From Bdellovibrionales bacterium (GTDB lineage Bacteria; Bdellovibrionota; Bdellovibrionia; Bdellovibrionales; DASUEL01), in contig JBFWOZ010000049.1 of the NCBI GenBank assembly GCA_050250255.1, forward strand, positions 1 to 19,334: a DNA stretch of 19,334 nucleotides, read 5' to 3'. The notes beneath the pieces were generated by a model. It made no database searches and had not been told where the DNA came from. It worked only from the letters and a program-made list of their open reading frames with translations. Of the stretch, positions 2 through 19,334 are shown piece after piece (position 1 is the stretch's first letter; each line of letters opens with the position of its first letter). Made by a program: the position numbers and the translations under genes.

Positions 2-2050
2 AACGTCGGTATCGGTACGACAAATCCGTCATATTCTTTAGATATTTCTGCGGCTACGGCTAAAGCCCGCGTTTCGTCCTCAACAGGTACAAACGCAGCC
101 TTCTTTGAGGCAAGCAACAGAGGCGGATGGTTTGACATAGGCCGAGAGCGAAGCACGGGTGGTGCTCTTCTGACTGGCGATACAGCGTATGCGGCAGTCT
201 TGGCAGCTCAAGGAACTTACCCTATGCAATTTGGCGTGAATGATTCAGTTGTAATGACCCTATTGAATGGCGGCAACGTCGGTATCGGTACGACAGTGCC
301 GGCCACAGTTTTAGATATTAATGGTGCTATGAGTGTTCGAGGTATGGCGGCGCCCACAGTTTCACCAGCGGGGCAAGGACGTATTTACTTCGATTCAACT
401 GCTAATAAATTCAAGATTTCTGAAAACGGCGGTGCTTACTCTGACATCGGCTCGGGTGGCGGTAGTCCTAGCAATACTGCATACTCGGCCCACATGGCTC
501 GCGTCTCGACGACACAAAGTATTCCTAGCGGCACGGTTACGACAATCGATTTTGATACTGAAACATATGATGTTGGCGGTTTTGCGAGTACCGCTACAGA
601 TCGCTTCACCATTGCCTATGCGGGCAAGTACCTTGTTCAAACAAGTTGGACGGCGTATCCAGTTGCCTCTACTCAGTGTGCCTGGCTCTATATTCATGTA
701 AATGGCACTCAACGCCGTACTATTTACGATTGTATGGCCAATAACGTGTATGGATCTCGACAAATTCAAAGCTCAGAAATTTTTGATCTCGCTGCAGGAG
801 ACTATATTGATATGAGAGTTTATCAAGATACAGGAGCAGCTTTAAATACTCAAACCGCTGCCAATGGTGGCCCACAAATGTCTGTCACTTTAATGTCCGC
901 AGGTGCTGGTGATAATAATAACCAATGGACGCTCGCTTCAGGAAAGCTTTATTATAATGGTGGTGATGTCGGGATTGGTACTACAGCACCGGCTTCAGCT
1001 CTAGACGTTGCTGGAAATATGTCCATGCGCGGTGGTGTGTTTAATTCCTTTGACCCTGTCACTCCAGCAAATTATTTAGCAAGACTAACTCATGGTGGAA
1101 CTGGAAATGGTTCCTTTCAACTTTACAATGCTGGCTCATTAAACGTAGTGCTTGCCTCTAGCGGAAATAGCTACTTAAATGGAGGTAATGTCGGTATCGG
1201 TACGACGGCCCCTGCCCAGGATTTACACATCAGCCAGGCTGCCGATTCCGTAATAAGACTTGAAAGAACAAGCTCAGGATCAGCGGCGGAGATCGCAACA
1301 GCTCATGACAGCGAGGGTTTTGTCATTCGAACACGAACCAATCACGGTATACGGTTTGCCACCAACACAACTAGTGGAGATTGGACCGACAGCACCAGAA
1401 TGTTCATCGCAGCTGGCGGAAATGTCGGCGTCGGCACAACTTCCCCTAACGCAAAAATGCATGTCAACTGTGATACGACAACAGTGAATTGCCTCTATCT
1501 CAACTCCACAGGCGGCGGTGGAACACTGGCACTTTTCCAAACAGCTGGTGTAACAGCCGGGTCCATCAGTATTGGTGGAGGTCCTAGTATTGCCTACAAC
1601 ACGACTTCAGATGCACGTCTTAAGGAAAATATTCGAGACTCATTAGCTGGTTTAACTGATCTGAAACGCATAGATGTTAGAGACTATAACTACATCGCGG
1701 ATTCTTCAAAAACGTCTCAGCAAGGATTTATTGCTCAACAACTGTATACTATTTATCCCGAAGCTGTGACTGTTGGTGGGAAAGATCCACATTCACAACC
1801 CTGGTCAGTCGACTACGGACGACTTACTCCGCTTATTGTGAAGTCAGTACAAGAACTCAATAACAAATGCGAAATGTCTCAAGAACAGTTAGCATCTATT
1901 CAACACATTGTAGCACGCCATGAACGAGACATTGCTTCTGTGAAGACCGAGAACGAGAAACTCAAAAGGGAGAACGTAGCCCAAGCGAAAGAACTGGAAG
2001 CGATTAAAGCTCGTCTTGAGAAAATCGAGAAAGCTCTCAACTCAAAATAA
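2..2050 (+). CDS. Mosaic trimeric tail-fibre-like adhesin with C1q-like domain and C-terminal S74 intramolecular chaperone (5'-truncated by the window)
   Basis: The frame is open from base 2 (NVGIGTTNPSYSLDI...), so TTG 200 is not the true start. Five (N/D)VG(I/V)GTT joints at ~2, 275, 965, 1187, 1421. C1q/TNF-like segment at ~476-895 (TIDFDTETYD...FTIAYAGKYLV...DLAAGDYIDMRVYQ). S74 motifs TSDARLKENI (Ser codon 1607), GFIAQQL and VDYGRLTPLIVKSVQEL, then a C-terminal coiled coil. Confidence 0.92.
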   Translation, partial: NVGIGTTNPSYSLDISAATAKARVSSSTGTNAAFFEASNRGGWFDIGRERSTGGALLTGDTAYAAVLAAQGTYPMQFGVNDSVVMTLLNGGNVGIGTTVPATVLDINGAMSVRGMAAPTVSPAGQGRIYFDSTANKFKISENGGAYSDIGSGGGSPSNTAYSAHMARVSTTQSIPSGTVTTIDFDTETYDVGGFASTATDRFTIAYAGKYLVQTSWTAYPVASTQCAWLYIHVNGTQRRTIYDCMANNVYGSRQIQSSEIFDLAAGDYIDMRVYQDTGAALNTQTAANGGPQMSVTLMSAGAGDNNNQWTLASGKLYYNGGDVGIGTTAPASALDVAGNMSMRGGVFNSFDPVTPANYLARLTHGGTGNGSFQLYNAGSLNVVLASSGNSYLNGGNVGIGTTAPAQDLHISQAADSVIRLERTSSGSAAEIATAHDSEGFVIRTRTNHGIRFATNTTSGDWTDSTRMFIAAGGNVGVGTTSPNAKMHVNCDTTTVNCLYLNSTGGGGTLALFQTAGVTAGSISIGGGPSIAYNTTSDARLKENIRDSLAGLTDLKRIDVRDYNYIADSSKTSQQGFIAQQLYTIYPEAVTVGGKDPHSQPWSVDYGRLTPLIVKSVQELNNKCEMSQEQLASIQHIVARHERDIASVKTENEKLKRENVAQAKELEAIKARLEKIEKALNSK

Positions 2051-2223: not shown

Positions 2224-2951
2224 ATGGTACGTAGAGCTGTCAATCTATCGAAATCACAGAGTTTTTTCCTATTCGGAGCCCGTGGTACAGGAAAGTCAAC
2301 CTTGATCAAAGCCACCGACTTTTTAGCAGATGCGCTTTATTTTGACTTACTAGATCTAGATTTAGAAGAGGAGCTGGCGCTACGACCATCCTCTTTTTCT
2401 GAAAAAATATCTGGGTTGAAAAAAGGCAGTTGGATTACAAAACAATTCAGAATTACTTTCAAATTCTTGAGGAAACATACATTGGCTTTTTTTTAGAGAG
2501 TTTTTCTAAGTCTGTTAGGAAGTCACAGCGCCAATCCCCGAAGTTCTATTTCTTTGACCCTGGCGTTGTGCGTGCGATCGAGGGGAAACTTACGGTTCCC
2601 CTTCAAAAACAAAGCTCAGATTTTGGCAATGCGTTTGAGTCTTGGTTTATCAATGAATGCCACCGTTTAAATTCATATCTAGAACTGGATTATAAGTTTT
2701 CTTATCTGCGCACCAAAGATGATGTTGAGATTGATCTGATCATTGAGCGACCCAATGGTTCAATGGCGTTAGTTGAAATCAAATCCACGGAAAGAATCGA
2801 TGACAGACATCTTCGCCACCTGCTTCATTTCGAGAAGGATTTTCCAAAAGCACAGCTGATATGTATCTCCCAGGAAAAACAAGCAAAAAAGGTGGGCCGA
2901 GTCTCCGTTCTTCCATGGCAAATGGCTTGGAAAGAACTTGGATTCCAATAA
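2224..2951 (+). pseudogene. AAA_14/DUF4143 (COG1373-type) ATPase with internal deletion and frameshift
   Basis: N-part (2224-~2436) has FFLFGARGTGKST (Walker A) and stops matching just before Walker B. C-part (~2430-2951, different frame) has KFYFFDPG, FESW and YLRTKDDVEIDLI..VEIKS. About 140 codons present in the paralogue at 3130 are missing. Confidence 0.88.
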
Positions 2952-3098: not shown

Positions 3099-3131
3099 AT
3101 AAGTCCATTTTTTACTATAAAATGGACTTAT
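3099..3131. promoter_or_regulatory. Perfect 13-bp inverted repeat over the promoter and start codon of the ATPase (operator-like)
   Basis: ATAAGTCCATTTT-ttactat-AAAATGGACTTAT; overlaps TTGATA (3096-3101), TAAAAT (3118-3123) and ATG 3130. Confidence 0.7.
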
Positions 3132-4263
3132 GTATACTAGACTTTTAAAGCCAGCCTCTAATCAAAGCTTTTTTCTCTTCGGCCCGCGAGGCACGGGTAA
3201 GTCTAGTTGGGTTCAGACAACATATCCAAAAGCGACATACATTGACCTTCTAGAGGACGAAATTTATCGCCGCTTGTTGGCGCGCCCAGGAGCCCTCACA
3301 GAATTCCTGCCTATGTCCACTACAACAGTTATTTTAGATGAAGTGCAAAAAGTGCCTGCTCTATTAGATGAGGTTCATCGTCTGATTGAGCGAAGAAAGA
3401 TCCAATTTATTTTAACAGGTTCAAGCGCGCGAAAACTAAAAAAACAAGGCACCAACCTTCTAGCTGGGCGTGCATTAACATATTCAATGTTTCCTCTTAC
3501 AGCCAAAGAATTGGGGAGTGATTTTAATTTATCTAAGGCACTTCGCTTTGGATTGTTACCAATGGCTGTTACATCAACAAACCCTAAGAAATACCTTGAG
3601 TCCTATGTGAAAACATACTTAAAGGAGGAGGTTGAGCAAGAGGGCTTGACCCGTCAAATCGGCTCATTTGCAAGGTTTCTTGAAATCGCGAGTTTTTCAC
3701 AAGCGGCACCTCTATCGATATCTCAAATTGCTAGTGAATCACAAGTACATCGCAAAGTAGCTGAGGACTATTTCTCTATTCTCCGGGACCTTCTTCTGTC
3801 TTATGAACTGCCCGTGTTTACTCGTAGAGCCAAACGCGAACTGATGACGAAGCGTAAATTTTATTTTTTTGATGTTGGCTTGTATAGGACCCTTCGTCCT
3901 AAGGGACCTCTCGATATTGAGTCAGAATTGAATGGACCTGCATTTGAAACTCTCTGCTTGCAAGAACTCTTAGCTTTGAATCACGACTTGGAAGGGGGAT
4001 ACGACTTCTTCCATTGGCGTACCCGCAAACATCAAGAAGTTGATCTGATTCTCTACGGTGAAAATGGGTTTCATGCATTCGAGTTCAAATCTAGCTCCCG
4101 TCTCCGTGAAGCCGATTTCGCGACCTTGCGTCTTTTTCAGGAAGATTATCCGGAAGCCCAACTTCGCTTAGTTTATGGTGGTCGCGAAAGCCGATCACAT
4201 GCTGGAATTCAAATTATTTCAGCCGTTGATTTTTTCTCAAAAGCTGAAACCTTTCTGTTTTGA
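3130..4263 (+). CDS. AAA+ ATPase, AAA_14 + DUF4143 (COG1373-type), intact
   Basis: Walker A GPRGTGKS, Walker B VILDEVQK, LTGSSAR, LAGRA, KFYFFDVG, and C-terminal EVDLI...FEFKS PD-(D/E)xK-like motif; 377 aa. Confidence 0.93.
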   Translation: MYTRLLKPASNQSFFLFGPRGTGKSSWVQTTYPKATYIDLLEDEIYRRLLARPGALTEFLPMSTTTVILDEVQKVPALLDEVHRLIERRKIQFILTGSSARKLKKQGTNLLAGRALTYSMFPLTAKELGSDFNLSKALRFGLLPMAVTSTNPKKYLESYVKTYLKEEVEQEGLTRQIGSFARFLEIASFSQAAPLSISQIASESQVHRKVAEDYFSILRDLLLSYELPVFTRRAKRELMTKRKFYFFDVGLYRTLRPKGPLDIESELNGPAFETLCLQELLALNHDLEGGYDFFHWRTRKHQEVDLILYGENGFHAFEFKSSSRLREADFATLRLFQEDYPEAQLRLVYGGRESRSHAGIQIISAVDFFSKAETFLF

Positions 4264-6907: not shown

Positions 6908-7525
6908 ATGTGTTGTAGAGTTTTATTTTCCCTTGCCCTCGTTGCTTCAAGTCTTCTCTTCTCTCAGCCTAGCTTTGCCCAGTTTGGTGGCAGTAATCGC
7001 TGTGATGAAAGACGAGACGAGTTTAATTATCAAGATCGCTGTGAACAAATTACGCGACGAGCTTGTGAGTACAATTCTCGATTGAGCTGTTATGTCTCCG
7101 TCAACATCCAACCCGTCTCTCGATGCGAACATCGTTACGATCAATACGACTCAGAATATGACTGCCGCATTCGATTTCCAGAAGGCTGTGAATACAGAAG
7201 TGGCTGCTGGGTTTCTCGGCCTATCCAACCACCACCACTCCCACGCTGTGATCCACAATACAAAGAGTACGACACCCAAGCTCGCTGCGAACGCATGCAT
7301 GAGCACGGCTGTCGTGTTGAAGGTCAATGTTGGGTTCCTAACCCTGCGCCACCGCCTCCACCACCACCGCCTGCCGTTTGTCCACACCAAGATGATGATG
7401 GTAGCTACGAAGGTCGTGGTCGAAGAGGTTTTAGAAACCAATCGATTTGTGAAATCTCTGAAGGTCGCCGCGCCGGCGCTTGCGAAATTCGTGGAGACGG
7501 ATGTTGGCACCCGCGAGGTCGCTAA
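6908..7525 (+). CDS. Secreted Cys-rich repeat protein (four 4-Cys repeats, poly-Pro linker), paralogue of 6036
   Basis: Signal peptide ending SFA-Q. Repeats 1-3 align in order with those of 6036 (NYQDRCEQ shared). PAPPPPPPP precedes an elongated fourth repeat. Confidence 0.88.
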   Translation: MCCRVLFSLALVASSLLFSQPSFAQFGGSNRCDERRDEFNYQDRCEQITRRACEYNSRLSCYVSVNIQPVSRCEHRYDQYDSEYDCRIRFPEGCEYRSGCWVSRPIQPPPLPRCDPQYKEYDTQARCERMHEHGCRVEGQCWVPNPAPPPPPPPPAVCPHQDDDGSYEGRGRRGFRNQSICEISEGRRAGACEIRGDGCWHPRGR

Positions 7526-9567
7526 GCCATCTTATCTAATGGTAAGGAAGGAATGGAAGAAAGCGCCAGGTGACGCTGCAAAGTCTTAAAAAGCTTCGGC
7601 AACTCAATAGGCTTCGTGAGATAATCGTTGCAACCCGCATTGAGGCAACGCTCACGATCCTCCTTCATCGCATGCGCCGTTAGAGCAATGATTGGCTTTT
7701 GATACCCCTGCCTTCGAAGCTCTGCGGTTGATGTATGACCATCCATGATTGGCATCTGCACATCCATTAAAACCAAATCATACTGGCCCTTCAGCGCCTT
7801 TTCTAATCCCTCTTTGCCATTGTTAGCACAGTCGACACGAACATTATGTCGGGTCAGAAAAACTCGAAGCAGCAGCTGATTGTCGGGCGAATCTTCTACC
7901 ACCAGGATGCTTTTATTTTGTAGCGCCACTTCTTTAAGATCTTCAGACACAGAAGGTTTTGCAAATTGGTTTTTGAGGACCTGATCCAACCCAACAGTGA
8001 TTAAAAAGGTTGAACCTAAACCTAAGTCGCTTTTTTCTAAAATGACATCTCCTCCAAGTGACTGCGCCAAACGTTTAGAAAGAATCAACCCAAGCCCTGT
8101 CCCCTCGTACTGTCGAGTGATGGAATTGTCGGCCTGTGAAAAGGGTAAAAACAACTGCTTGATATTATCTGGAGAAATTCCAATACCCGTATCGCTCACA
8201 CGAAAATAAAGTTGCAAAGCGTTCGTGAGCGGCACTTGGTGCGTTCCATACTCTACAACAACCAAGCCTTCTTTCGTAAATTTGAGCGCATTCCCCACAA
8301 GGTTGAGAAGAATTTGGCGCAAACGAATTCGGTCTGTGTGTATGGCGCTTGGGTACTCACCTTTATCCACAAATTTTAATTTATTTCCGCCCTCTTCCGC
8401 TCGCACATTGAGAGCCTCTTGAGTTTCTTTCATAAAATCCGAAAGCTGAAACGTTGTTTTCTCAATCTCAAGATGTCCCGCTTCGACTTTGGAAATATCT
8501 AAAATATCATTGATGATTCTTTTTAAATTATTTCCCGTGCGCTCAATCATTTGTACATATTGATCGTGATCATCGACTGAAATATTTTTATCTTTTAGAA
8601 TCTCTGCGATTCCTAAAATTACGCCGAGCGGAGTTCTGATTTCATGGCTCATGTTGGCCAAAAATAAACTTTTAATTTTACTCGCACTCTCGGCTTTTTC
8701 GCGTTCACCAATATTCTTTTTCAAATTCTGAACCATTTGGTTCAGAGCTTGCGCCATCTGCCCCAATTCATCTTTTGAGCGCACGGGAATTTCGTAAGAA
8801 AAGTTCGCATTCCCAACTTCAATTGCGGTATTGCTCAACTCTTTTAAACTTCGGCTCAGATTTCTTGTAAATAAAAAAGTTAAACAAACGCCAGTAGCTT
8901 CAACCGTAAAAACAGCACACAGCAGGAGCCATTTCAACAGAGACTCCAGCCATCTCGAACCTTCGCCTAGAGTGTAAGAGAATTCTTTTTCTAAAGAGGT
9001 AAATTGATCATCGAGAGTTTCAATCCTAATAAGAACAGAAGCTACGCCAGGACTTGGATTTTCTTTTGTTGAGTTTTGCACTTCTGCTCTTAAGTCACGA
9101 GCCGCGCTCATGAGGTCATCTATTAACGTATCTGCCTCTGTCCATACTACAAGAGCATGGTTTACGTAGCTGACCCAATAAAAATTTCGGATAAGGCGAA
9201 TCAAACCTGGAATATCACTACGATGAATTTCTCCTTGAGCAAATCCCTCATGAACGCTCTTAAGATCAGGTTTTGCTTTAATGAGCTCTAATCGCGCGCG
9301 ACGATCGCCGAGCGGAATTTGTAGATGCCTTAAATATTCAGAATAATAGCGATCGTCCTGAGTTGTGGCATATCTTTGTAAATTGTAGACCGCATCTTTT
9401 TGTGCTTTTGACCAAAGCCCTTCACCGCTCACAAAAGATCTCACGGCAGAAAGAACATCCATTGTAAAGAGAAGGGTAAACATCTCAGCCGCAATCAGCA
9501 TCGCCATGATGCCGACAACACCATAAAGTTTTTTTGCAACCGACAGATTGCGCCACCAATTACTCAT
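7522..9567 (-). CDS. Membrane hybrid sensor histidine kinase (sensor-HAMP-HisKA-HATPase-REC)
   Basis: Two TM segments; HAMP (DELGQMAQALNQM); H-box FLANMSHEIRTPL; N box NLVGNALKFT; G boxes DTGIGI and GTGLGL; REC DLVLMDVQMP...YLTKP. Confidence 0.97.
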   Translation of the reverse strand: MSNWWRNLSVAKKLYGVVGIMAMLIAAEMFTLLFTMDVLSAVRSFVSGEGLWSKAQKDAVYNLQRYATTQDDRYYSEYLRHLQIPLGDRRARLELIKAKPDLKSVHEGFAQGEIHRSDIPGLIRLIRNFYWVSYVNHALVVWTEADTLIDDLMSAARDLRAEVQNSTKENPSPGVASVLIRIETLDDQFTSLEKEFSYTLGEGSRWLESLLKWLLLCAVFTVEATGVCLTFLFTRNLSRSLKELSNTAIEVGNANFSYEIPVRSKDELGQMAQALNQMVQNLKKNIGEREKAESASKIKSLFLANMSHEIRTPLGVILGIAEILKDKNISVDDHDQYVQMIERTGNNLKRIINDILDISKVEAGHLEIEKTTFQLSDFMKETQEALNVRAEEGGNKLKFVDKGEYPSAIHTDRIRLRQILLNLVGNALKFTKEGLVVVEYGTHQVPLTNALQLYFRVSDTGIGISPDNIKQLFLPFSQADNSITRQYEGTGLGLILSKRLAQSLGGDVILEKSDLGLGSTFLITVGLDQVLKNQFAKPSVSEDLKEVALQNKSILVVEDSPDNQLLLRVFLTRHNVRVDCANNGKEGLEKALKGQYDLVLMDVQMPIMDGHTSTAELRRQGYQKPIIALTAHAMKEDRERCLNAGCNDYLTKPIELPKLFKTLQRHLALSSIPSLPLDKMA

Positions 9568-9947
9568 GCGGACTTCCTATTTAATCTCATTAAAAATTCT
9601 TTCAACGCATCTAGCGCGTAAAACATCTCACGATTGATCTCTATCAAAAGCGTCTCTGTTTTTGCGTAGTCCGAGGCACTGGCCTGCTTTTCAATTTCAC
9701 GACAAAGAGTAAAAGCACGGGAAAATCCTAAGTTTCCGGTGCTTGCCTTAAAAGCATGAGCCTCTGACTTAATGGAGAGCCAGTCTCGTTGGGCAAGAGC
9801 TTTTGTCATTTTGATAATCCGTTCTGGAGCAATCTTTTCGTAAATCTCTATTAATTCACTGAGGAGTGGTGTTTGGGATTGCCTCTCTAAGTCCAAAAGC
9901 TCTTGAACTTTTGAATGGTCGAGAACAGGAATGTGTTTTAAGTCCAT
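9564..9947 (-). CDS. Stand-alone Hpt phosphotransfer protein
   Basis: EAHAFKASTGNLG (HxxKGxS-like) in a helical 127-aa protein; AGGGGAG RBS; ATGA overlap with the kinase. Confidence 0.92.
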   Translation of the reverse strand: MDLKHIPVLDHSKVQELLDLERQSQTPLLSELIEIYEKIAPERIIKMTKALAQRDWLSIKSEAHAFKASTGNLGFSRAFTLCREIEKQASASDYAKTETLLIEINREMFYALDALKEFLMRLNRKSA

Positions 9948-10018
9948 GAATTACTCCCCTTATAGAATCTCATAAAATCTTGGAGAAACGGCGGTGCGGT
10001 TATGAAGATTTCGTAAAC

Positions 10019-10729
10019 TTATGCAGCTTTTGATTCGGGCGTTGCACCCAAGAAGCGATAGCCAAACCCTGAGACCGTCTCAATATAAGACGAGCAATAT
10101 CCTAATTTATGTCGGAGAGTGGAGATGTGTTTATCCACCGTTCGATCGGTAATCGCAAAGTTCTCTCCCCATACGGCGGTAATAATCTGATCACGAGAAA
10201 AAACATTTTGCTCGTGCCGTGCTAGGAAATAAAGGATTTTAAACTCGATAGGTGTAAGTATTAGCGAGATAGGACCATTCGCCGATTCCAAAGCCACACT
10301 TTGACTTTCCAAATTGATATAAAGTGCCCCAGTACGAATTTCAGAGTTTTTGGTTTTTTGTGTTTTAAGATTTTTAATTTTTGCATTCACCCGAGCCAGT
10401 AGCTCCATCGCGTGAAAAGGCTTCTCGATATAATCATCTGCACCCAAGGAGAGGCCCGTAACTAAATTTGAAACCCCCGTCTTACCCGTTACAAAGATAA
10501 TAGGAACTTGCCTTGTACGGTCTTCCTGCTGAAACTCCGCACAGAGAGAAAAGCCATCTCCATCAGGAAGCATCACATCGAGAAGTATGAGATCAAAACT
10601 CTGCTGTCTCATTTTGAGACGAGCGTCTAAAGCCGAGGCCACCCAAGTTAAATGGTACTGACTTCCTAGGGCTGCCCTTACAAGCAGGTGAGTCTCTTCT
10701 GAATCGTCGATCAGCAAAAGATGTTTCAT
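10019..10729 (-). CDS. OmpR/PhoB-family response regulator
   Basis: REC LIDD, DLILLDVMLPDGDG, GADDYIEKPF; winged helix LTPIEFKIL...RTVDKHISTLRHKL...IETVSGFGY. Confidence 0.96.
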   Translation of the reverse strand: MKHLLLIDDSEETHLLVRAALGSQYHLTWVASALDARLKMRQQSFDLILLDVMLPDGDGFSLCAEFQQEDRTRQVPIIFVTGKTGVSNLVTGLSLGADDYIEKPFHAMELLARVNAKIKNLKTQKTKNSEIRTGALYINLESQSVALESANGPISLILTPIEFKILYFLARHEQNVFSRDQIITAVWGENFAITDRTVDKHISTLRHKLGYCSSYIETVSGFGYRFLGATPESKAA

Positions 10730-10831
10730 AGTTTTTAGTGGTCAAGTACTTATCGGAATTTTGCGACCTCTTCTTGAAGTTGAAAAAAGCGAACTCTCGT
10801 ATATTATAAATAAAAACAGTTTTGATCGATC

Positions 10832-11413
10832 CTATAGAATAAACTGCAGATAATAGAACGTTAATCCTATATAGAGCAAACCGAGAATCCATATGAATTT
10901 CGCGTCCCAAGTCATTTTGAGTATAGCCGGGGCGGCTAGATCAACCGCCTCTGGTAAATTAATTTTGTTTGTGGTTATACTCAGTGCCTCTAGCAACACG
11001 TCCGTTGCCTGCCTATTTGTGCATGATTTTGGCAAAAATTCAGGCATTGGATCTTTACTTTTTGTTAATAAGGGCTGTAAGTCTTTTCCTGACGTCAGCA
11101 GAAACTGCTGTTTTGGGTATTTATAACGACAGTAATTCCACAGATCCATTCCCGTCTCATTCCCCTCGAGAAATTGGTCCGCAATGACTAAATCGTAATG
11201 AATAGCCCTATTATCAAGAAGCTTTTTTGCCACTTCCGCCGACGACGCTCTATCCACACGAGTGTCAAAATCTAATACCCTTAGCAGGCTCGTAAATTTT
11301 GCCTGGAAGAAAAGATCATCCTCTACCAGCAAGACAGATAGCTGAGGCCTTTGAGGCTCTCTATTTGTCAGGTACTCATGATTCCACATATTAAGGTCAT
11401 AAAATTCCTGCAT
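10832..11413 (-). CDS. Receiver-domain protein with C-terminal transmembrane anchor
   Basis: VLLVEDD, YDLVIADQFL, LLTS, FLPK; hydrophobic tail FIWILGLLYIGLTFYYLQFIL. ATG 11413 is preferred because GTG 11422 lies inside the AAGGTG RBS. Confidence 0.85.
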   Translation of the reverse strand: MQEFYDLNMWNHEYLTNREPQRPQLSVLLVEDDLFFQAKFTSLLRVLDFDTRVDRASSAEVAKKLLDNRAIHYDLVIADQFLEGNETGMDLWNYCRYKYPKQQFLLTSGKDLQPLLTKSKDPMPEFLPKSCTNRQATDVLLEALSITTNKINLPEAVDLAAPAILKMTWDAKFIWILGLLYIGLTFYYLQFIL

Positions 11414-11428
11414 ATAAATCACCTTTGG

Positions 11429-11752
11429 TTAATGTTCGATTTCATTATATTCTTTAAAAAGCCCACGTTTTTTACGCCACGAGTGCATTTGTCCATATAA
11501 CTGACCGATACACTTCTCAACCGCGTCTACCAGATTCGATGCTGTTCCACGAGCTATGAACGCGCCTCCTACGTAGCGAATTTCTGCCATCATACAAAAG
11601 GAGTTCTCTGAAGGAGTATGCGTCTTCGTGATGTTGGCCTCTAAATAGGAATCAGAAGGACAAAGTTCTAAAAGATCTGCAATTTGCATCTCCACCTCTT
11701 TTATTTCAGAAGGCTTCACTTTAAAACCGAGACAAAGAATATCCTGATCCAT
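11429..11752 (-). CDS. Small hypothetical protein, possible HPF/RaiA-like fold
   Basis: ATG 11752 follows GGGAG; 107 aa with an apparent beta-alpha-beta-beta-beta-alpha pattern ending FIARGTASNLVDAVEKCIGQLYGQMHSWRKKR. The fold assignment is inference. Confidence 0.7.
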   Translation of the reverse strand: MDQDILCLGFKVKPSEIKEVEMQIADLLELCPSDSYLEANITKTHTPSENSFCMMAEIRYVGGAFIARGTASNLVDAVEKCIGQLYGQMHSWRKKRGLFKEYNEIEH

Positions 11753-11880
11753 ACAACTCCCTTGGTTCAAAACAGGATAAAGGATGAAAGTGAAGCCAGA
11801 TGGGTTTGAAAGTGAAGATTTCTTCACAACCTAAATCCGCAAATCCACACAGTTTTCCACGGATTCTCATTTTAAGATGA

Positions 11881-13668: not shown

Positions 13669-14331
13669 ATGGAACAGGAGCCGAAGGTTCAACTACCACT
13701 CAGCGAAAAGGTTAAAAATATTCCTGGAGTATTTGGAATACACTTTACAGAAAAACCAAAATATAAATTATTGAAACACGAGGGCGACTTTGAATTGCGA
13801 GAATATGAGCCCATGATTGTTGCTAAAGTGACGGTGCAAGGCTCTTATGAAGAAGCGCGAGCCGAAGCTTTCAAAAAATTAGCAAACTACATCTTCGGCG
13901 AAAACCGTGAACACAAAGTGATGCCTATGACGGCTCCTGTGCTTCAAGAAGGGGCAGACGTAGAAATGGCCATCCACGCGATGGAGCCTAATGTTCTACA
14001 AGAGTTTCCATTTGCCGGAAATAAGAGCCTGACCATGTCTTTTGTTTTACCCTCAGACATCAGCGCGAAGATTGCGCCACTCCCAACAGACTCTGGTATT
14101 CACATCGAAGCTATCCCTTCACAGACTTGGGCGGTGGTGACCTATTCTGGTGAAAATACACCTCAAGACATGCGAATCAATTATCTAAAACTTCAAGTTT
14201 GGCTAGAACTACGTGGGCAAAAAAACGAATCTCCCACCATGAGAATGGCTGAGTATGATGGTCCAAATACCATTTCATTTTTACGCAAGAATGAAGTGCA
14301 GATTCTTATTTGGAGCGCGGATCTTCAGTAG
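13669..14331 (+). CDS. SOUL-family haem-binding protein
   Basis: EKPKY...FELREY, AFKKLANYIFGEN, MPMTAPV, MSFVLP, RKNEV; GGAGG RBS. Confidence 0.92.
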   Translation: MEQEPKVQLPLSEKVKNIPGVFGIHFTEKPKYKLLKHEGDFELREYEPMIVAKVTVQGSYEEARAEAFKKLANYIFGENREHKVMPMTAPVLQEGADVEMAIHAMEPNVLQEFPFAGNKSLTMSFVLPSDISAKIAPLPTDSGIHIEAIPSQTWAVVTYSGENTPQDMRINYLKLQVWLELRGQKNESPTMRMAEYDGPNTISFLRKNEVQILIWSADLQ

Positions 14332-14957: not shown

Positions 14958-16157
14958 ATGAATTTAGTCCCAATTTTGCTCCTGGCATTCATAATGCTCT
15001 CATTCCAAACGAATACACATGCTTTTGTTTCCTTTGAAACCAAAACATCATTTGGATATTACAAAGACGTTCAACAACGTCAAAAGTTTCCGCTTTATTT
15101 ATCTTGGTCTTATCAAGGGCTTCACTCACAGGGCATTGAAACATCTCTACAGATGATCATGAATAACAATTTGCTAGAAAATAAGTGGAAAGTTACGCCC
15201 GCGTATGGATCTGTTGTTGTGCCATTAAGTAAAAAATATCGCTCTCGAGTAGAGGCGGGACGTCTTTTTTGGTTTGAAGGGTTTGAGCTTTCACTGCTCG
15301 ATGGAATTCAAATGCCCATTTATTGGTCTCAAACCGGTGGCATTTTTATTTATGGCGGCTCAACGCAGGCTACTGATTTGGATGAGAATCTTACAGGACA
15401 AGTTTGGGGCATGAGTGTTTTTGAAATGTGGTTAGATATTCACTTCCGAGTCGGATGGATGGGGCAAGATCCCAATCTCAAAAGACAAAGTGTTTTCGGA
15501 TCTATATATCGAGAGTTTAATCTGCCACTTTCTCCCTCACTTCTGCTAAAGCAGGAGGTGCTGCCGACGAGTTGGACTTATCCTCAATCCATAAGCGAAC
15601 TCAACCTGTTCCCAACTGATAATACATCTTTCTCTGCCTCGTACTCTTATCGTCAGCCAAGAGCATACACGGAAGCTGAACAAAATTTTCTTTATAGATT
15701 ATTTTCAATTTCCCCACAACAAACCCAAAGCTATTCCGCTTCTTGGAAGGCGAACGAAAAAGTGAGGCTTCAACTACAAACGCTTTGGATGAGATATAAC
15801 AGCGGCCAAAGAGATGAACGTGCGGAACAGCAGGACCTCTCATTAGACTGGCAACTTACACAGGCTCATAAAATCACACCCCACATCGGTTACATAAAAA
15901 GCTACGGTGGACACGTTTGGAATCAGGGCATTAGGTATCTTTTTGATGCTACAGAAAAGACAAGCTTACTTACCGACATTTCATCAGCTTACATTGAAAA
16001 AATAAGTGGAGTAAAAACTTGGGCCGGTCATATTCGCTCGGGATTAAACTATTACTTATTCTCACATACTTCTGCCTCTACGTGGATAGAACTTGAGAGG
16101 AATCATATCTATGAGTTTGATGGAAGGATTATGACCTATGTTACGCAATATTACTAA
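14958..16157 (+). CDS. Probable outer-membrane beta-barrel (porin of a porin-cytochrome cluster)
   Basis: Signal peptide (THA-F), aromatic-rich alternating beta-strand pattern throughout, terminal aromatic strand (IMTYVTQYY); overlaps the first cytochrome gene. Confidence 0.8.
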   Translation: MNLVPILLLAFIMLSFQTNTHAFVSFETKTSFGYYKDVQQRQKFPLYLSWSYQGLHSQGIETSLQMIMNNNLLENKWKVTPAYGSVVVPLSKKYRSRVEAGRLFWFEGFELSLLDGIQMPIYWSQTGGIFIYGGSTQATDLDENLTGQVWGMSVFEMWLDIHFRVGWMGQDPNLKRQSVFGSIYREFNLPLSPSLLLKQEVLPTSWTYPQSISELNLFPTDNTSFSASYSYRQPRAYTEAEQNFLYRLFSISPQQTQSYSASWKANEKVRLQLQTLWMRYNSGQRDERAEQQDLSLDWQLTQAHKITPHIGYIKSYGGHVWNQGIRYLFDATEKTSLLTDISSAYIEKISGVKTWAGHIRSGLNYYLFSHTSASTWIELERNHIYEFDGRIMTYVTQYY

Positions 16158-16716
16158 AATCCTGGCAATTCTTCTCATAAGCTCCTTTAGTCAATCTGAT
16201 CAGAAGTACACAAAACCATTTCCAGAGCTCTTTTCCCATAAATCACACGAAAAAATCTTTCTGCAGTCCTCCATTAAATGCCTTGAGTGTCACAGCTTTT
16301 CAGTCAAATCAAAAGCTCAGGATCCCTTAGGATTACCCGTAGCAGGAGGTTTCATTCAAGGCTCTCGTACAAGATGTCATGAGTGTCACTTAGGTAAAGT
16401 GAATTTTCCGCGACCCAATCAGTGTGTCCTCTGCCACAGAGATGTTGTTCGTTTAATGCCTGAAGATCACCACCGGTCCTGGATGTTTCGTCATGGTAAA
16501 ATAGCTCAAATGAACAAAGAAAGTTGTGTTGCCTGTCACAGTACGAACACCTGTTCAGAATGTCACATCAAACGACAGTCACAAAAGCCTACTGTACACC
16601 CTCCTAATTATAGAATTTTTCATTCCGTACAAGCGCGCGCCAACCCCCAAAGTTGCATGAGTTGTCACTCGACACAAAACTCATGCACACAATGCCATCA
16701 AAAAGGTGGTCTATGA
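16138..16716 (+). CDS. Heptahaem c-type cytochrome
   Basis: Seven CxxCH (CLECH, CHECH, CVLCH, CVACH, CSECH, CMSCH, CTQCH); FSHKSH c3/c7-like motif; N-terminal signal. Confidence 0.95.
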   Translation: MLRNITKILAILLISSFSQSDQKYTKPFPELFSHKSHEKIFLQSSIKCLECHSFSVKSKAQDPLGLPVAGGFIQGSRTRCHECHLGKVNFPRPNQCVLCHRDVVRLMPEDHHRSWMFRHGKIAQMNKESCVACHSTNTCSECHIKRQSQKPTVHPPNYRIFHSVQARANPQSCMSCHSTQNSCTQCHQKGGL

Positions 16717-16994
16717 GAATTTGTTTACTCTTATTTATTATATTTTGTTCTTGTTCCGTCAAAAAACAAGGTGAAGACTATCATGTCACAACTCAAGAAG
16801 ATCTTGTTCTGCGCGCAGACAATCACCCTCATGGATGGGAAAAAGCTGAATGCTTCACATGCCACGTGTCCACAAACATCCACCTAGAAAATCGGCTGAA
16901 TCATCCAAGCTTTAACTCCGCGAGAGGTCTAGTAGAACAGTATGGCCTAATGAGTTGTCGCGGCTGCCACGGCTCCAATGGAGCAACCCCATGA
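16713..16994 (+). CDS. Dihaem c-type cytochrome, probable lipoprotein (93 aa)
   Basis: ATGA overlap at 16713-16; MRICLLLFIIFCSC lipobox-like signal; CFTCH and CRGCH. Confidence 0.88.
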   Translation: MRICLLLFIIFCSCSVKKQGEDYHVTTQEDLVLRADNHPHGWEKAECFTCHVSTNIHLENRLNHPSFNSARGLVEQYGLMSCRGCHGSNGATP

Positions 16995-17404
16995 AAATCT
17001 TAATTATTTTATTTTTTATACAATTACTCCAGGCAAACGATGGTCGACTAGATCCACATGGAAAAGGCGATGTCGACATCAAGAACCTTAACTTCTTAAA
17101 GGAGAAAGCCTGTACGACCTGCCATTCAAGTTCTGGAAAATTGAAAATAGATGCAAAACATAGCTGCTTTAATTGCCATAACCGTGCGCCACACAGCGGG
17201 GTGGCAGAGCACTTAGGAAAGCCCTACAAGGGAGCATCTATTTCCTGCTTACACTGTCACTCTGCTCATAGATTTGGCTCAAAAAAAGCCGAAGATAGCA
17301 CATTTTTTAAAACAACAGAAAAAGCGCTGCCTGATCATCTTGTGAATAAAAAAAAATCTGAGTCAATGCTCAGTAAAACATGTACGGACTGTCACAAATG
17401 GTAG
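16991..17404 (+). CDS. Tetrahaem c-type cytochrome (137 aa)
   Basis: ATGA overlap at 16991-94; signal MKILIILFFIQLLQA; CTTCH, CFNCH, CLHCH, CTDCH. Confidence 0.92.
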   Translation: MKILIILFFIQLLQANDGRLDPHGKGDVDIKNLNFLKEKACTTCHSSSGKLKIDAKHSCFNCHNRAPHSGVAEHLGKPYKGASISCLHCHSAHRFGSKKAEDSTFFKTTEKALPDHLVNKKKSESMLSKTCTDCHKW

Positions 17405-18963
17405 TTGCCCGAATCCTACTTATTTCATTATCTGTTTTCAGTTTACAAGCCCACTCGAACCAACTTTTATGGGATGTCCAAGTTGCTTGGAAAACAAAAA
17501 TTGAGCACCCAACGCTTTTAGTAGTTTGCAATGAAAAAATATGGTCCTATAGCAGATCAGAGAAAATTATTTGGTCACTCAACATTCAGACGGGCAAAAA
17601 AGAATCTTCGGAAAAATCGAGGAACACTGTTGTTTCCTTTAGTTGTTTCAAAAAACAAATCTTGATTGGTTACCAAGATCAATCCATTACCTATAACAAT
17701 AAACGATTTTTACTTCCTAGAAATGGCAGGTTGAAAGACCTCCAATGCGATGAGACGACTTGCTATGCCCTGCTTGATAATAATCTCTACTCTACAAAAG
17801 ACTTCACAAAATGGGAACAGAATGCACTCCCACCCTCTAAAGCGGTTCTTGATAACAAAATAGATCTAAAGCTTAACCCATTCTCTAACTGGCAAGATTA
17901 TATGGTCCTAGCTTCGTCCCATTATTCTCGCTTGAAACCTCATTCTCAGGCCATTTATTTATTAGATCCTATGAGGGTAAAAATTGTCGAAAAAACAAAA
18001 AATCGTTTTGTTAAATGGGGTGAGTGGGGAGCCTGGGAAGGCTCCCTGATGAACCCTAGAGCCTTTGATTTCACTCCTGGAGGAGATTTGATCATCGTTG
18101 ATTCAGACCTTAAAGCCATCTTCCTCTACAACACCCAGGGAAAGTTCCTAGCAACTCTTAGAACCTCTGGAGAATTGCCTGATTTTGAATATCCCTCAGA
18201 CATTCGCGTCACCCCAGACCATATTTACGTGTCCGATGTGTTTGCGAACCAAATCATCGCATTTCAATGGAAAAATCTCTCATCGAATTGGCAACCAACA
18301 CTCATTCGTCAAAATTTATTTCGCCGAGCTCAAGTATTAAAAGATCGTTTTCAAAATCGCTGTCTTAAGTGCCATGATGGGCTTGTGAGCGACGAATGGG
18401 ATAAATATTTTAAAAATTCTCACCCCATTTCTCAACAAGTGAAAAGCAAAAATCAGCCGTTACTTGAAGATGGGAAAACCTCGTGCGTGAGTTGTCACGA
18501 CCCACACCACAGCAATAAAAATAAAAGCTCAAAGTTTAAGGCCCACTTACGTATGGATGAAAAAAAACTATGTCTTGAATGTCATAGCTCACATGCTGAA
18601 AGACCAATGAACCATGGAGGAAAGTGCACTCTCTGTCACCAGATGCATAAAGGGTACGAGCACCTACTAAAAACCGTTTCTACACAGTTGTGCGTGAGTT
18701 GTCATGCGACTAAGAGCTTTAAGCATCGGAACTTAAATACTATCGAGGATATTGATGTTGCAAAACTGAATCAGCTCTTTAACCATCAACTTAACTGTTT
18801 GACTTGTCACTCAAGCCACAACTCAAATCAAAAGCAATCTCTTCTGAATATCGCAGAGCCCTCTATTAAGCTGTGCCAATCGTGCCATGGGGAGAAGGCT
18901 CAGGATCTTTACAAAAATTTTCACATGAGAATGACAGCTAACAAAAGACGAGGACGACAGTGA
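17398..18963 (+). CDS. NHL-repeat/beta-propeller fused to heptahaem cytochrome c
   Basis: ATG 17398 overlaps the previous stop; signal peptide; NHL-like GSLMNPRAFDF...LIIVDS and FEYPSDIRV...IYVSD; seven CxxCH in the C-terminal ~200 aa, several as CxxCHxxH. Confidence 0.92.
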   Translation: MVVARILLISLSVFSLQAHSNQLLWDVQVAWKTKIEHPTLLVVCNEKIWSYSRSEKIIWSLNIQTGKKESSEKSRNTVVSFSCFKKQILIGYQDQSITYNNKRFLLPRNGRLKDLQCDETTCYALLDNNLYSTKDFTKWEQNALPPSKAVLDNKIDLKLNPFSNWQDYMVLASSHYSRLKPHSQAIYLLDPMRVKIVEKTKNRFVKWGEWGAWEGSLMNPRAFDFTPGGDLIIVDSDLKAIFLYNTQGKFLATLRTSGELPDFEYPSDIRVTPDHIYVSDVFANQIIAFQWKNLSSNWQPTLIRQNLFRRAQVLKDRFQNRCLKCHDGLVSDEWDKYFKNSHPISQQVKSKNQPLLEDGKTSCVSCHDPHHSNKNKSSKFKAHLRMDEKKLCLECHSSHAERPMNHGGKCTLCHQMHKGYEHLLKTVSTQLCVSCHATKSFKHRNLNTIEDIDVAKLNQLFNHQLNCLTCHSSHNSNQKQSLLNIAEPSIKLCQSCHGEKAQDLYKNFHMRMTANKRRGRQ

Positions 18964-19112
18964 TTAACTTAGATAAGTTTCGTAAGCTTTCAAAGACGAA
19001 AAAATTTTTTCTTTATCTGAGCGGATTTATTTTTGGCCTTCTGTTGAGCACCCTAATTGTATTTCAAATTCTCTTTTTGATAAAAGTTATTCCGCACGGA
19101 GGAATTTGGTGA
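18960..19112 (+). CDS. 50-aa single-TM protein (not in the ORF track)
   Basis: GTGA overlaps at both ends; MINLDKFRKLSKTKKFFLYLSGFIFGLLLSTLIVFQILFLIKVIPHGGIW has a basic N-terminus and one TM helix. Confidence 0.75.
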   Translation: MINLDKFRKLSKTKKFFLYLSGFIFGLLLSTLIVFQILFLIKVIPHGGIW

Positions 19113-19334
19113 AATACTTCTGGATGACACTCGCTCCACTTTTTACTTTTTTGGCTCCTAGTATTTTAGGTGGAATCGCCATGGGGGTATATCCAGGTTA
19201 TAAAGCCTATGAATATGCTTGGAAGAATGCTCAATTTTGCACCTCGTGCCATGTTCATGACTATGCAACAGTCGGCTGGAAAGACAGCATTCACGGAGAC
19301 AAAACGACATGTCACGACTGCCATCATCAACCCC
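19109..19334 (+). CDS. NapC/NirT (CymA/NrfH-type) membrane-anchored cytochrome c, 3'-truncated by the window
   Basis: GGAGG at 19098-19102, GTG 19109; N-terminal TM segment, then AQFCTSCHVH, WKDSIH, CHDCH. Confidence 0.85.
   Translation, partial: MKYFWMTLAPLFTFLAPSILGGIAMGVYPGYKAYEYAWKNAQFCTSCHVHDYATVGWKDSIHGDKTTCHDCHHQP

Follow-up and report, generated by a model that had tools for sequence, protein, structure and literature searches.

We analysed a 19,334-nucleotide stretch of DNA (the window), which is the entire contig C49 of a 3.09 Mb, 99%-complete genome of a Bdellovibrionales bacterium (G000, the host), and found that its last seven genes very probably encode a conduit that takes electrons through the outer membrane, whichever the direction. 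It is well supported that this system is a porin-cytochrome conduit, and we read it as a divergent one of the Pcc type, which Geobacter uses on iron minerals, with an inner module of its own, made up of a propeller-multihaem protein, a 50-aa peptide and a NapC-like hexahaem protein. What is new here is that this Pcc-like variant has an inner module not described before and occurs in a phylum where it was not expected. Concerning its function, we lean towards a wire for export, through which a cell short of oxygen would dispose of its respiratory electrons outside. No description of this operon was found in the literature searched, which left subscription papers mostly outside, and the supplements of bioRxiv 10.64898/2026.05.27.727921 could list related clusters. 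The original prediction, made from the DNA letters alone, had guessed a Bdellovibrio-like host; Bdellovibrionota proved right, and the sole genome of the same family that was searched (G001) belongs to Bdellovibrionales.

Seven consecutive open reading frames (ORFs) run on the plus strand from position 14958 to the contig end, with successive overlaps of 20, 4, 4, 7, 4 and 4 nt (Table 1). In operon order they hold 0, 7, 2, 4, 7, 0 and 2 CxxCH motifs, 22 within the window, so that both the seven overlapping genes and the minimum of 22 haems announced by the original prediction are borne out. In the haem-bearing ORFs these 22 motifs are spread over 1,018 residues, whereas the genome background (all stop-to-stop ORFs of at least 150 aa in the host genome) has 71 in 976,397, an excess of about 300-fold for the operon. 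Multihaem ORFs are few in this genome: the operon set, ActA of the alternative complex III (ACIII) operon on contig C35, and two at the end of contig C59.

The last gene of the operon is cut by the end of C49, and one ORF on C59, itself cut by the contig end, has 4 CxxCH. When seven intact homologues were compared with the host genome by tblastn, their N-terminal part matched C49 and the remainder C59; in six of them the C49 match ends at residue n and the C59 match starts at n+2 or n+3, and the seventh gives a shorter C49 match. The C49 and C59 pieces reach 64% and 60%, respectively, against an intact homologue. Reads do not bridge the gap between the contigs, and it is this homology that points to one hexahaem gene split by the assembly; if the two pieces are one gene, the protein has 6 haems and the operon 26. 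Beyond the rest of this NapC-like gene, C59 holds a convergent 6-haem lipoprotein with HG repeats and no reductase. A periplasmic terminal reductase downstream, which according to the original prediction would have accounted for the cytochromes in another way, was thus not encountered.

The first protein of the operon has no Pfam, NCBIfam or PDB match by sequence. Its AlphaFold2 model, built from a 48-row alignment, is a 22-strand barrel with no plug domain (predicted local distance difference test, pLDDT, 90.4; predicted template-modelling score, pTM, 0.80), and a Foldseek search of the PDB with this model matches outer-membrane barrels only, in agreement with the beta-barrel proposed from the sequence. 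The structure matches in the Atlas are unnamed look-alikes from Myxococcota, Thermodesulfobacteriota and Binatota, with TM values of 0.87-0.90.

The heptahaem gene lies directly 3' of the barrel gene in all 38 loci with sequence there, among 40 distinct barrel loci, and the seven CxxCH motifs of its product, together with six further histidines, are invariant across 38 aligned rows. The predicted complex of barrel, heptahaem cytochrome and four haems scored 0.77, and the best of three controls scored 0.00; this mark is attained by 116 of 157 solved complexes and by 2 of 215 mismatched pairs, counts that are only roughly valid here. The AlphaFold-type test proposed with the original prediction was thus passed by this pair. 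The runs agree in at least 67% of contacts, with a partner pLDDT of at least 61, and the contacts of the predicted complex fall on alternate residues of most barrel strands, a lumen pattern. Residues 87-182 of the cytochrome (haems 3-6, with motif 7 just past them) are predicted to touch the barrel, leaving haems 1-2 outside. Judged by strand parity, the best-defined contacts are those close to the outer loops, which would place the N-terminal haems on the periplasmic side. On this model the heptahaem cytochrome is predicted to sit inside the barrel lumen.

Concerning the remaining proteins, the dihaem lipoprotein matches no Pfam family; across 37 aligned rows its lipobox Cys14 is conserved in at least 90%, and both CxxCH motifs and two extra histidines are invariant. 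The tetrahaem cytochrome has a signal-peptide-like N-terminus (location judged by eye) and keeps its operon position in relatives, and is likely a periplasmic relay. The 521-aa protein had been labelled a plain cytochrome, but AlphaFold2 predicts a propeller of NHL type for the first ~290 residues (24-290, with block pLDDT values mostly of 90 or above), and the best Foldseek matches of this part are NHL domains; PF09699 and TIGR01905 are both over cut-off, and relatives have 7 to 23 haems. The 50-aa peptide is, on the conservation of 27 distinct homologues (PHGG in 24), a real conserved gene, and, being directly before the hexahaem gene in nearly all loci, its product is likely the partner of the hexahaem protein. 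Against PF03264, the hexahaem fragment in the window scores 28.7 bits (cut-off 24.1) and an intact homologue 20.1 bits, below the cut-off; 25 of 28 alignment rows match at E <= 0.01, over about 45 of the 174 profile positions. Of the NapC/NirT quinol dehydrogenase label given previously there stands, then, an N-terminal match, weak and restricted to that end. The HG-repeat lipoprotein on C59 has no NCBIfam family; the proteins of its own family have 5-30 haems, and a lipobox-like Cys (by a loose pattern) occurs in 19 of 27 relatives.

Table 1. Features of the window and of the adjoining part of contig C59 in the host genome
Feature	Position	Strand	Basis or remark
Outer-membrane beta-barrel, 399 aa	14958..16157	+	AlphaFold2 model, Foldseek, hhalign
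Heptahaem cytochrome c, 192 aa; predicted to fill the barrel lumen, with a role like that of OmaB	16138..16716	+	Conservation, complex prediction
Dihaem lipoprotein, 93 aa; candidate barrel cap	16713..16994	+	Conserved lipobox Cys, CxxCH
Tetrahaem cytochrome c, 137 aa	16991..17404	+	4 CxxCH, Cytochrome_C7 over cut-off
Fusion of NHL-type beta-propeller and doubled-CXXCH multihaem part, 521 aa, 7 haems	17398..18963	+	AlphaFold2, Foldseek, PF09699, TIGR01905
Conserved single-helix membrane peptide, 50 aa, C-terminal PHGG	18960..19112	+	Homologue conservation
Hexahaem gene, inferred to be split by the assembly	19109..19334, continues G000:C59:14631-14095	+ (C59 part: minus)	tblastn adjacency, alignment to intact homologues
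HG-repeat lipoprotein, 6 haems; candidate surface module	G000:C59:13419-14141 (L006:3420-4142)		Convergent with the operon
SOUL haem-binding protein	13669-14331		Just upstream of the operon
Fibre-like protein; C1q-like and lectin-like stretches, C-terminal S74 chaperone	2-2050		
AAA/DUF4143 gene in two overlapping frames	2224-2951		Directly before intact paralogue 3130-4263
Signalling cluster: hybrid histidine kinase, Hpt protein, two response regulators	7522-11827	minus	

The distribution of these genes was followed in a sample of 401 Bdellovibrionota genomes. The barrel profile matched 32 and, after two weak short matches had been dropped, 30 carriers were left, 16 of the close type and 14 of a distant type. 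The hexahaem protein was found in 17 genomes and the HG-repeat lipoprotein in 25, all of them barrel carriers, and neither in any of the 371 non-carriers; a search with the hexahaem alignment gave 28 loci, all from Bdellovibrionota, unclassified Deltaproteobacteria or uncultured bacteria. The full seven-gene order is present in 16 of 23 close-type barrel loci (in 4 of the others the contig or locus stops short, and 3 have a rearranged order), with the HG-repeat lipoprotein next in 12 of the 16. It should be noted that some loci in this survey are near kin, and that labels were given to haem proteins and homologues only. In one carrier (G007, L005:4158-7801), an HG-repeat lipoprotein with 14 haems stands divergent from a distant-type barrel cluster, together with a membrane module like DsrO/DsrP (NrfC/NrfD-type); the module is a possible alternative quinone link.

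The wide variation in the haem counts of the propeller protein and the HG-repeat lipoprotein, the NirK of the host and the presumed surface location of the lipoproteins would also leave room for a store of electrons, in which the haem chain is a capacitor or a periplasmic distribution system that feeds NirK or the oxidases as conditions swing between oxic and anoxic, while the barrel serves to anchor it and nothing is transferred outwards on balance. We consider this improbable: the heptahaem cytochrome is predicted to pass through the lumen with contacts all round the barrel, the pair is invariant across phyla, and NrfA is missing from 24 of the 32 carriers examined, so that the cluster does not track one periplasmic reductase.

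Beyond the phylum, heptahaem homologues occur in Binatia, and 36 metagenome loci were retrieved with one of them. In seven of these (L101, L109, L099, L102, L106, L108 and L112) a 10-haem gene, cut at 8 in one case, precedes the barrel; these loci retain the barrel-7-2-4 core and end in a NapC/NirT protein that has 6 CxxCH. The 10-haem protein of L101, the only one scored, falls in the OmcA/MtrC family TIGR03507 with 381.9 bits (cut-off 209.3). Judged by these matches, the Binatia-type loci combine parts of the kinds used by Shewanella and by Geobacter, an OmcA/MtrC-family decahaem protein with a Pcc-type barrel.

Six loci (L126, L127, L128, L129, L130 and L131) carry 8-haem and 12-haem (or truncated 10-haem) genes, and five of them have a barrel gene in front (405 aa), which is the OmbB-OmaB-OmcB layout. 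The window barrel profile matches the three full-length barrels of this layout at E 1e-14 to 1e-18 among 3,087 ORFs, and hhalign aligns the window barrel family with them at 96.6% probability over 354 columns with 14% identity. Their named relatives are Syntrophales (420 barrel homologues at E <= 1e-20). Compared by eye, Syntrophales-type barrels share with OmbB 27 of 41 residues of an ungapped stretch, which spans the invariant GR, DG and G positions of the window family. The heptahaem cytochrome is 28% identical over 209 columns to an 8-haem protein of the OmaB layout. We read the window barrel and the OmbB-type Pcc porins as sharing a remote but real homology, on a sequence link that runs by profile and hhalign through barrels resembling OmbB by eye, and that is weak in reverse, as reported below.

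Pcc systems have a barrel of 18-22 strands and an adjacent periplasmic c-type cytochrome with 5-14 haems, membership being set by BLAST at E < 0.01 (PMC4245776). The Geobacter complex of OmbB-OmaB-OmcB layout passes electrons across liposomes (PMC4282303), and pcc clusters with 7-haem partners and cluster-linked membrane cytochromes have already been listed (PMC4282303; PMC4245776). The operon studied here resembles them in its succession of a ~400-aa barrel with 22 predicted strands, a 7-haem cytochrome and a putative lipoprotein cytochrome, and in a cytochrome inserted in the barrel, here by prediction only (complex score and lumen-pattern contacts). It differs in its third gene, for a 93-aa dihaem protein instead of a cytochrome with 6-15 haems, and in the extra tetrahaem cytochrome, propeller-multihaem fusion, PHGG peptide and hexahaem protein; its host is aerobic by gene content and belongs to a phylum absent from the available part of the 2014 pcc list (PMC4245776). 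For the lipoprotein cytochrome found in most Pcc members, the candidates here are the dihaem protein and the HG-repeat lipoprotein.

With MtrCAB-CymA and MtoAB the operon would share a cytochrome in a barrel, predicted here, and a putative NapC/NirT-type link to the quinone pool; in Sideroxydans the Mto clusters hold a CymA-like inner-membrane gene within the operon (PMC5566968). The barrel was rejected as MtrB/PioB, given no PF11854 match in the host genome or in 48 family members; MtrB has ~28 predicted strands (PMC4245776) against 22 here. The insert was rejected as an MtrA/DmsE decahaem protein, since it carries 7 haems and is not matched by TIGR03508 (with this model the propeller protein reaches 42 bits, cut-off 192). 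A further difference is that there is no MtrC in the host genome. The original prediction, that the parts differ from MtrCAB, thus holds for the barrel, the insert and the missing MtrC, but as a remote Pcc relative the system is not unrelated to known conduits. An MtrAB operon has been reported in the magnetotactic Bdellovibrionota FG-1, so a conduit of another family was already known in this phylum (PMC13200544). The FG-1 locus that we retrieved (L082) carries a propeller-peptide-hexahaem module, with no barrel of the window family within the locus, and the inner module may pair with other conduits.

Proteins of the NapC/NirT family usually have a methionine after the first haem motif (CxxCHxM) and a tetrahaem core. 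The hexahaem protein recalls NapC, NirT, NrfH and CymA in a putative membrane helix at the N-terminus, after which come two CxxCH spaced as in NapC, and is unlike them in its six haems, its first motif CxxCHxH and its unmatched C-terminal two-thirds; moreover a separate helix of 50 aa accompanies it and may be required by it. As regards the propeller, multihaem cytochromes clustered with NHL beta-propeller genes are described in Desulfovibrio ferrophilus (DFE_0448-0451 and DFE_0461-0465; PMC9769857). In that species separate genes encode the propellers, and the available sections show no porin; in the present operon the propeller forms part of the multihaem protein, and the first gene is that of a barrel. 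In PCC3 and PCC4, predicted porin-multihaem clusters, the inner-membrane component is a five-helix protein bearing two HX13H motifs, and the porins and cytochromes of PCC3 are far larger than those found here (PMC5566968). Membership in PCC3/PCC4 was rejected, since the seven genes hold only single-helix membrane proteins and no five-helix HX13H protein.

For the export wire that we favour, the following path can be proposed. Quinol would give its electrons to the membrane hexahaem protein with its 50-aa partner helix; they would cross the periplasm through the propeller-multihaem and tetrahaem proteins, in an order that we infer, enter the heptahaem cytochrome at haems 1-2 outside the barrel and traverse the barrel along haems 3-7. 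The dihaem lipoprotein and the HG-repeat multihaem lipoprotein, presumably at the surface, would then hand them to Fe(III), humics or another extracellular acceptor. A type II secretin, present in the host genome and over cut-off in 15 of 17 carriers (only carriers were scored), could export surface lipoproteins. The quinone-to-surface wire of the original prediction is strengthened by the barrel model, the predicted lumen insertion and the lack of a downstream reductase, while its quinol end depends on a weak match.

Several results weigh against this reading or against single parts of it. The quinol step is the weakest, because the NapC/NirT match is confined to the short stretch of the profile given above, the first motif is CxxCHxH in 27 of 27 sequences, with His in place of the Met of the family, 13 of the 30 barrel carriers lack the hexahaem protein, and the 15 tetrahaem neighbours scanned in other carriers are not NapC-type. 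The hexahaem protein also has no PDB match by sequence. The co-occurrence profiles were partly built from the same 401 genomes, whose kin are not independent. As to the barrel, the complex score may only mirror likeness to solved porin-cytochrome complexes, and just four haems, non-covalent, were included in the prediction. In the reverse search, made with a profile of 38 Syntrophales-type barrels, the window barrel ranks third among 33,926 ORFs but at no better than E 1.5, and 9 of 60 window-family representatives come out at E < 0.001. No FNR-type box was found upstream of the operon. Finally, the respiratory genes of the host offer other sinks for electrons, so that the inward direction is possible, and its quinone genes raise a separate difficulty; both are considered in the next paragraphs.

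Genes for complex I, ACIII, NirK and two oxidases, aa3 and cbb3, are present in the host, which by this content would be an aerobe. A search of its genome found no NrfA, NirS, bd oxidase or MtrB, no NosZ above cut-off, no octahaem ORF and, among the multihaem ORFs, no large surface cytochrome of the MtrC type; for the molybdopterin family there is a single match, to ActB, a subunit of ACIII. NirK, a lipoprotein-like protein with a fused cytochrome c, is unlinked to the operon (L097, G000:C91), with an Rrf2 regulator and an azurin-like protein beside it. Two haem-copper matches were considered as NO reductase and rejected, both being oxidases. With two such oxidases, ACIII and NirK, no other anaerobic reductase found and no MtrC-type protein, the conduit might work inwards, with Fe(II), sulfide minerals or reduced humics as the source of electrons, aa3/cbb3 or NirK as their destination and the hexahaem protein reducing quinone, as proposed for Mto-type clusters, which also hold a CymA-like inner-membrane gene (PMC5566968). 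However, the nearest characterised relatives, OmbB-OmaB-OmcB, export electrons (PMC4282303), Binatia-type versions come with an OmcA/MtrC decahaem protein, and strong NrfA matches in 8 of the 32 carriers examined, together with strong molybdopterin-family matches in several, suggest low-oxygen respirers. We hold the inward direction to be rather unlikely.

Export of respiratory electrons also has to be weighed against the quinone genes. In the host genome, quinone biosynthesis is not recognisable: UbiA/MenA, MenB, MqnA/D and UbiE/MenG are absent or under cut-off, and the sole UbiA-family gene is haem O synthase (the observation is recorded for the whole genome and at L095:2888-3805, contig C13). 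UbiE/MenG is present in 10 of the 30 barrel carriers against 246 of the 371 other genomes. It was not found in 145 of the 401 genomes, whole families included, and the trend is confounded by family, entire families lacking the gene and all four carriers of family f22 having it. It is possible that the host and its kin scavenge quinone from prey.

A predator or epibiont without its own quinone could use the conduit on contact, taking electrons from the attached prey or host cell or unloading them onto it. The missing genes, the UbiE/MenG counts, the small size of several carriers (1.7-2.2 Mb) and the S74-chaperone fibre protein on the same contig are consistent with such a use. The probability that we give it is low, because of the kinship that confounds the quinone trend, because ACIII and complex I need quinone anyway and uptake from prey explains the gap with no conduit, and because no barrel match occurs in the 26 genomes of one genus, probably Bdellovibrio, which is sampled more than any other in the order of the host. 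A broader speculation, in our opinion distinctly unlikely, is that the lineage is predatory or epibiotic and has lost quinone biosynthesis, that its conduit plugs into the electron chain of an attached cell or breathes minerals during anoxic hunting, and that the PHGG peptide and the CxxCHxH hexahaem protein form a new two-piece quinone-site enzyme working on scavenged quinones.

The SOUL haem-binding gene 630 nt upstream could suggest that the operon serves metal uptake, detoxification or haem handling rather than energy metabolism, and some porin-cytochrome operons of Desulfuromonadia include ABC transporter genes (PMC11492766). This is very unlikely indeed: a search of 60 related loci gave no SOUL homologue, the barrel model has no plug or TonB-type domain, and a membrane-anchored multihaem protein and a total of at least 26 haems fit respiration better.

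Bdellovibrionota are known and treated mainly as oxygen-breathing bacterial predators. If the export wire is true, its presence in 30 of the 401 genomes would enable part of the phylum, in groundwater, sediment, sludge and landfill, to respire where oxygen is lacking, and would bring cells of a predator lineage into the electroactive community. As the barrel family has no Pfam or NCBIfam model, annotation pipelines miss it, and the barrel with its 7-haem insert is among the smallest predicted outer-membrane wires. The missing quinone pathway raises a separate question, that of the quinone source of these cells.

Elsewhere in the window, the fibre-like protein encoded at its start is one which we take to resemble the prey-recognition fibres of Bdellovibrio. 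The AAA/DUF4143 gene lying in two overlapping frames before its intact paralogue may be either a broken duplicate or an assembly error (Table 1).

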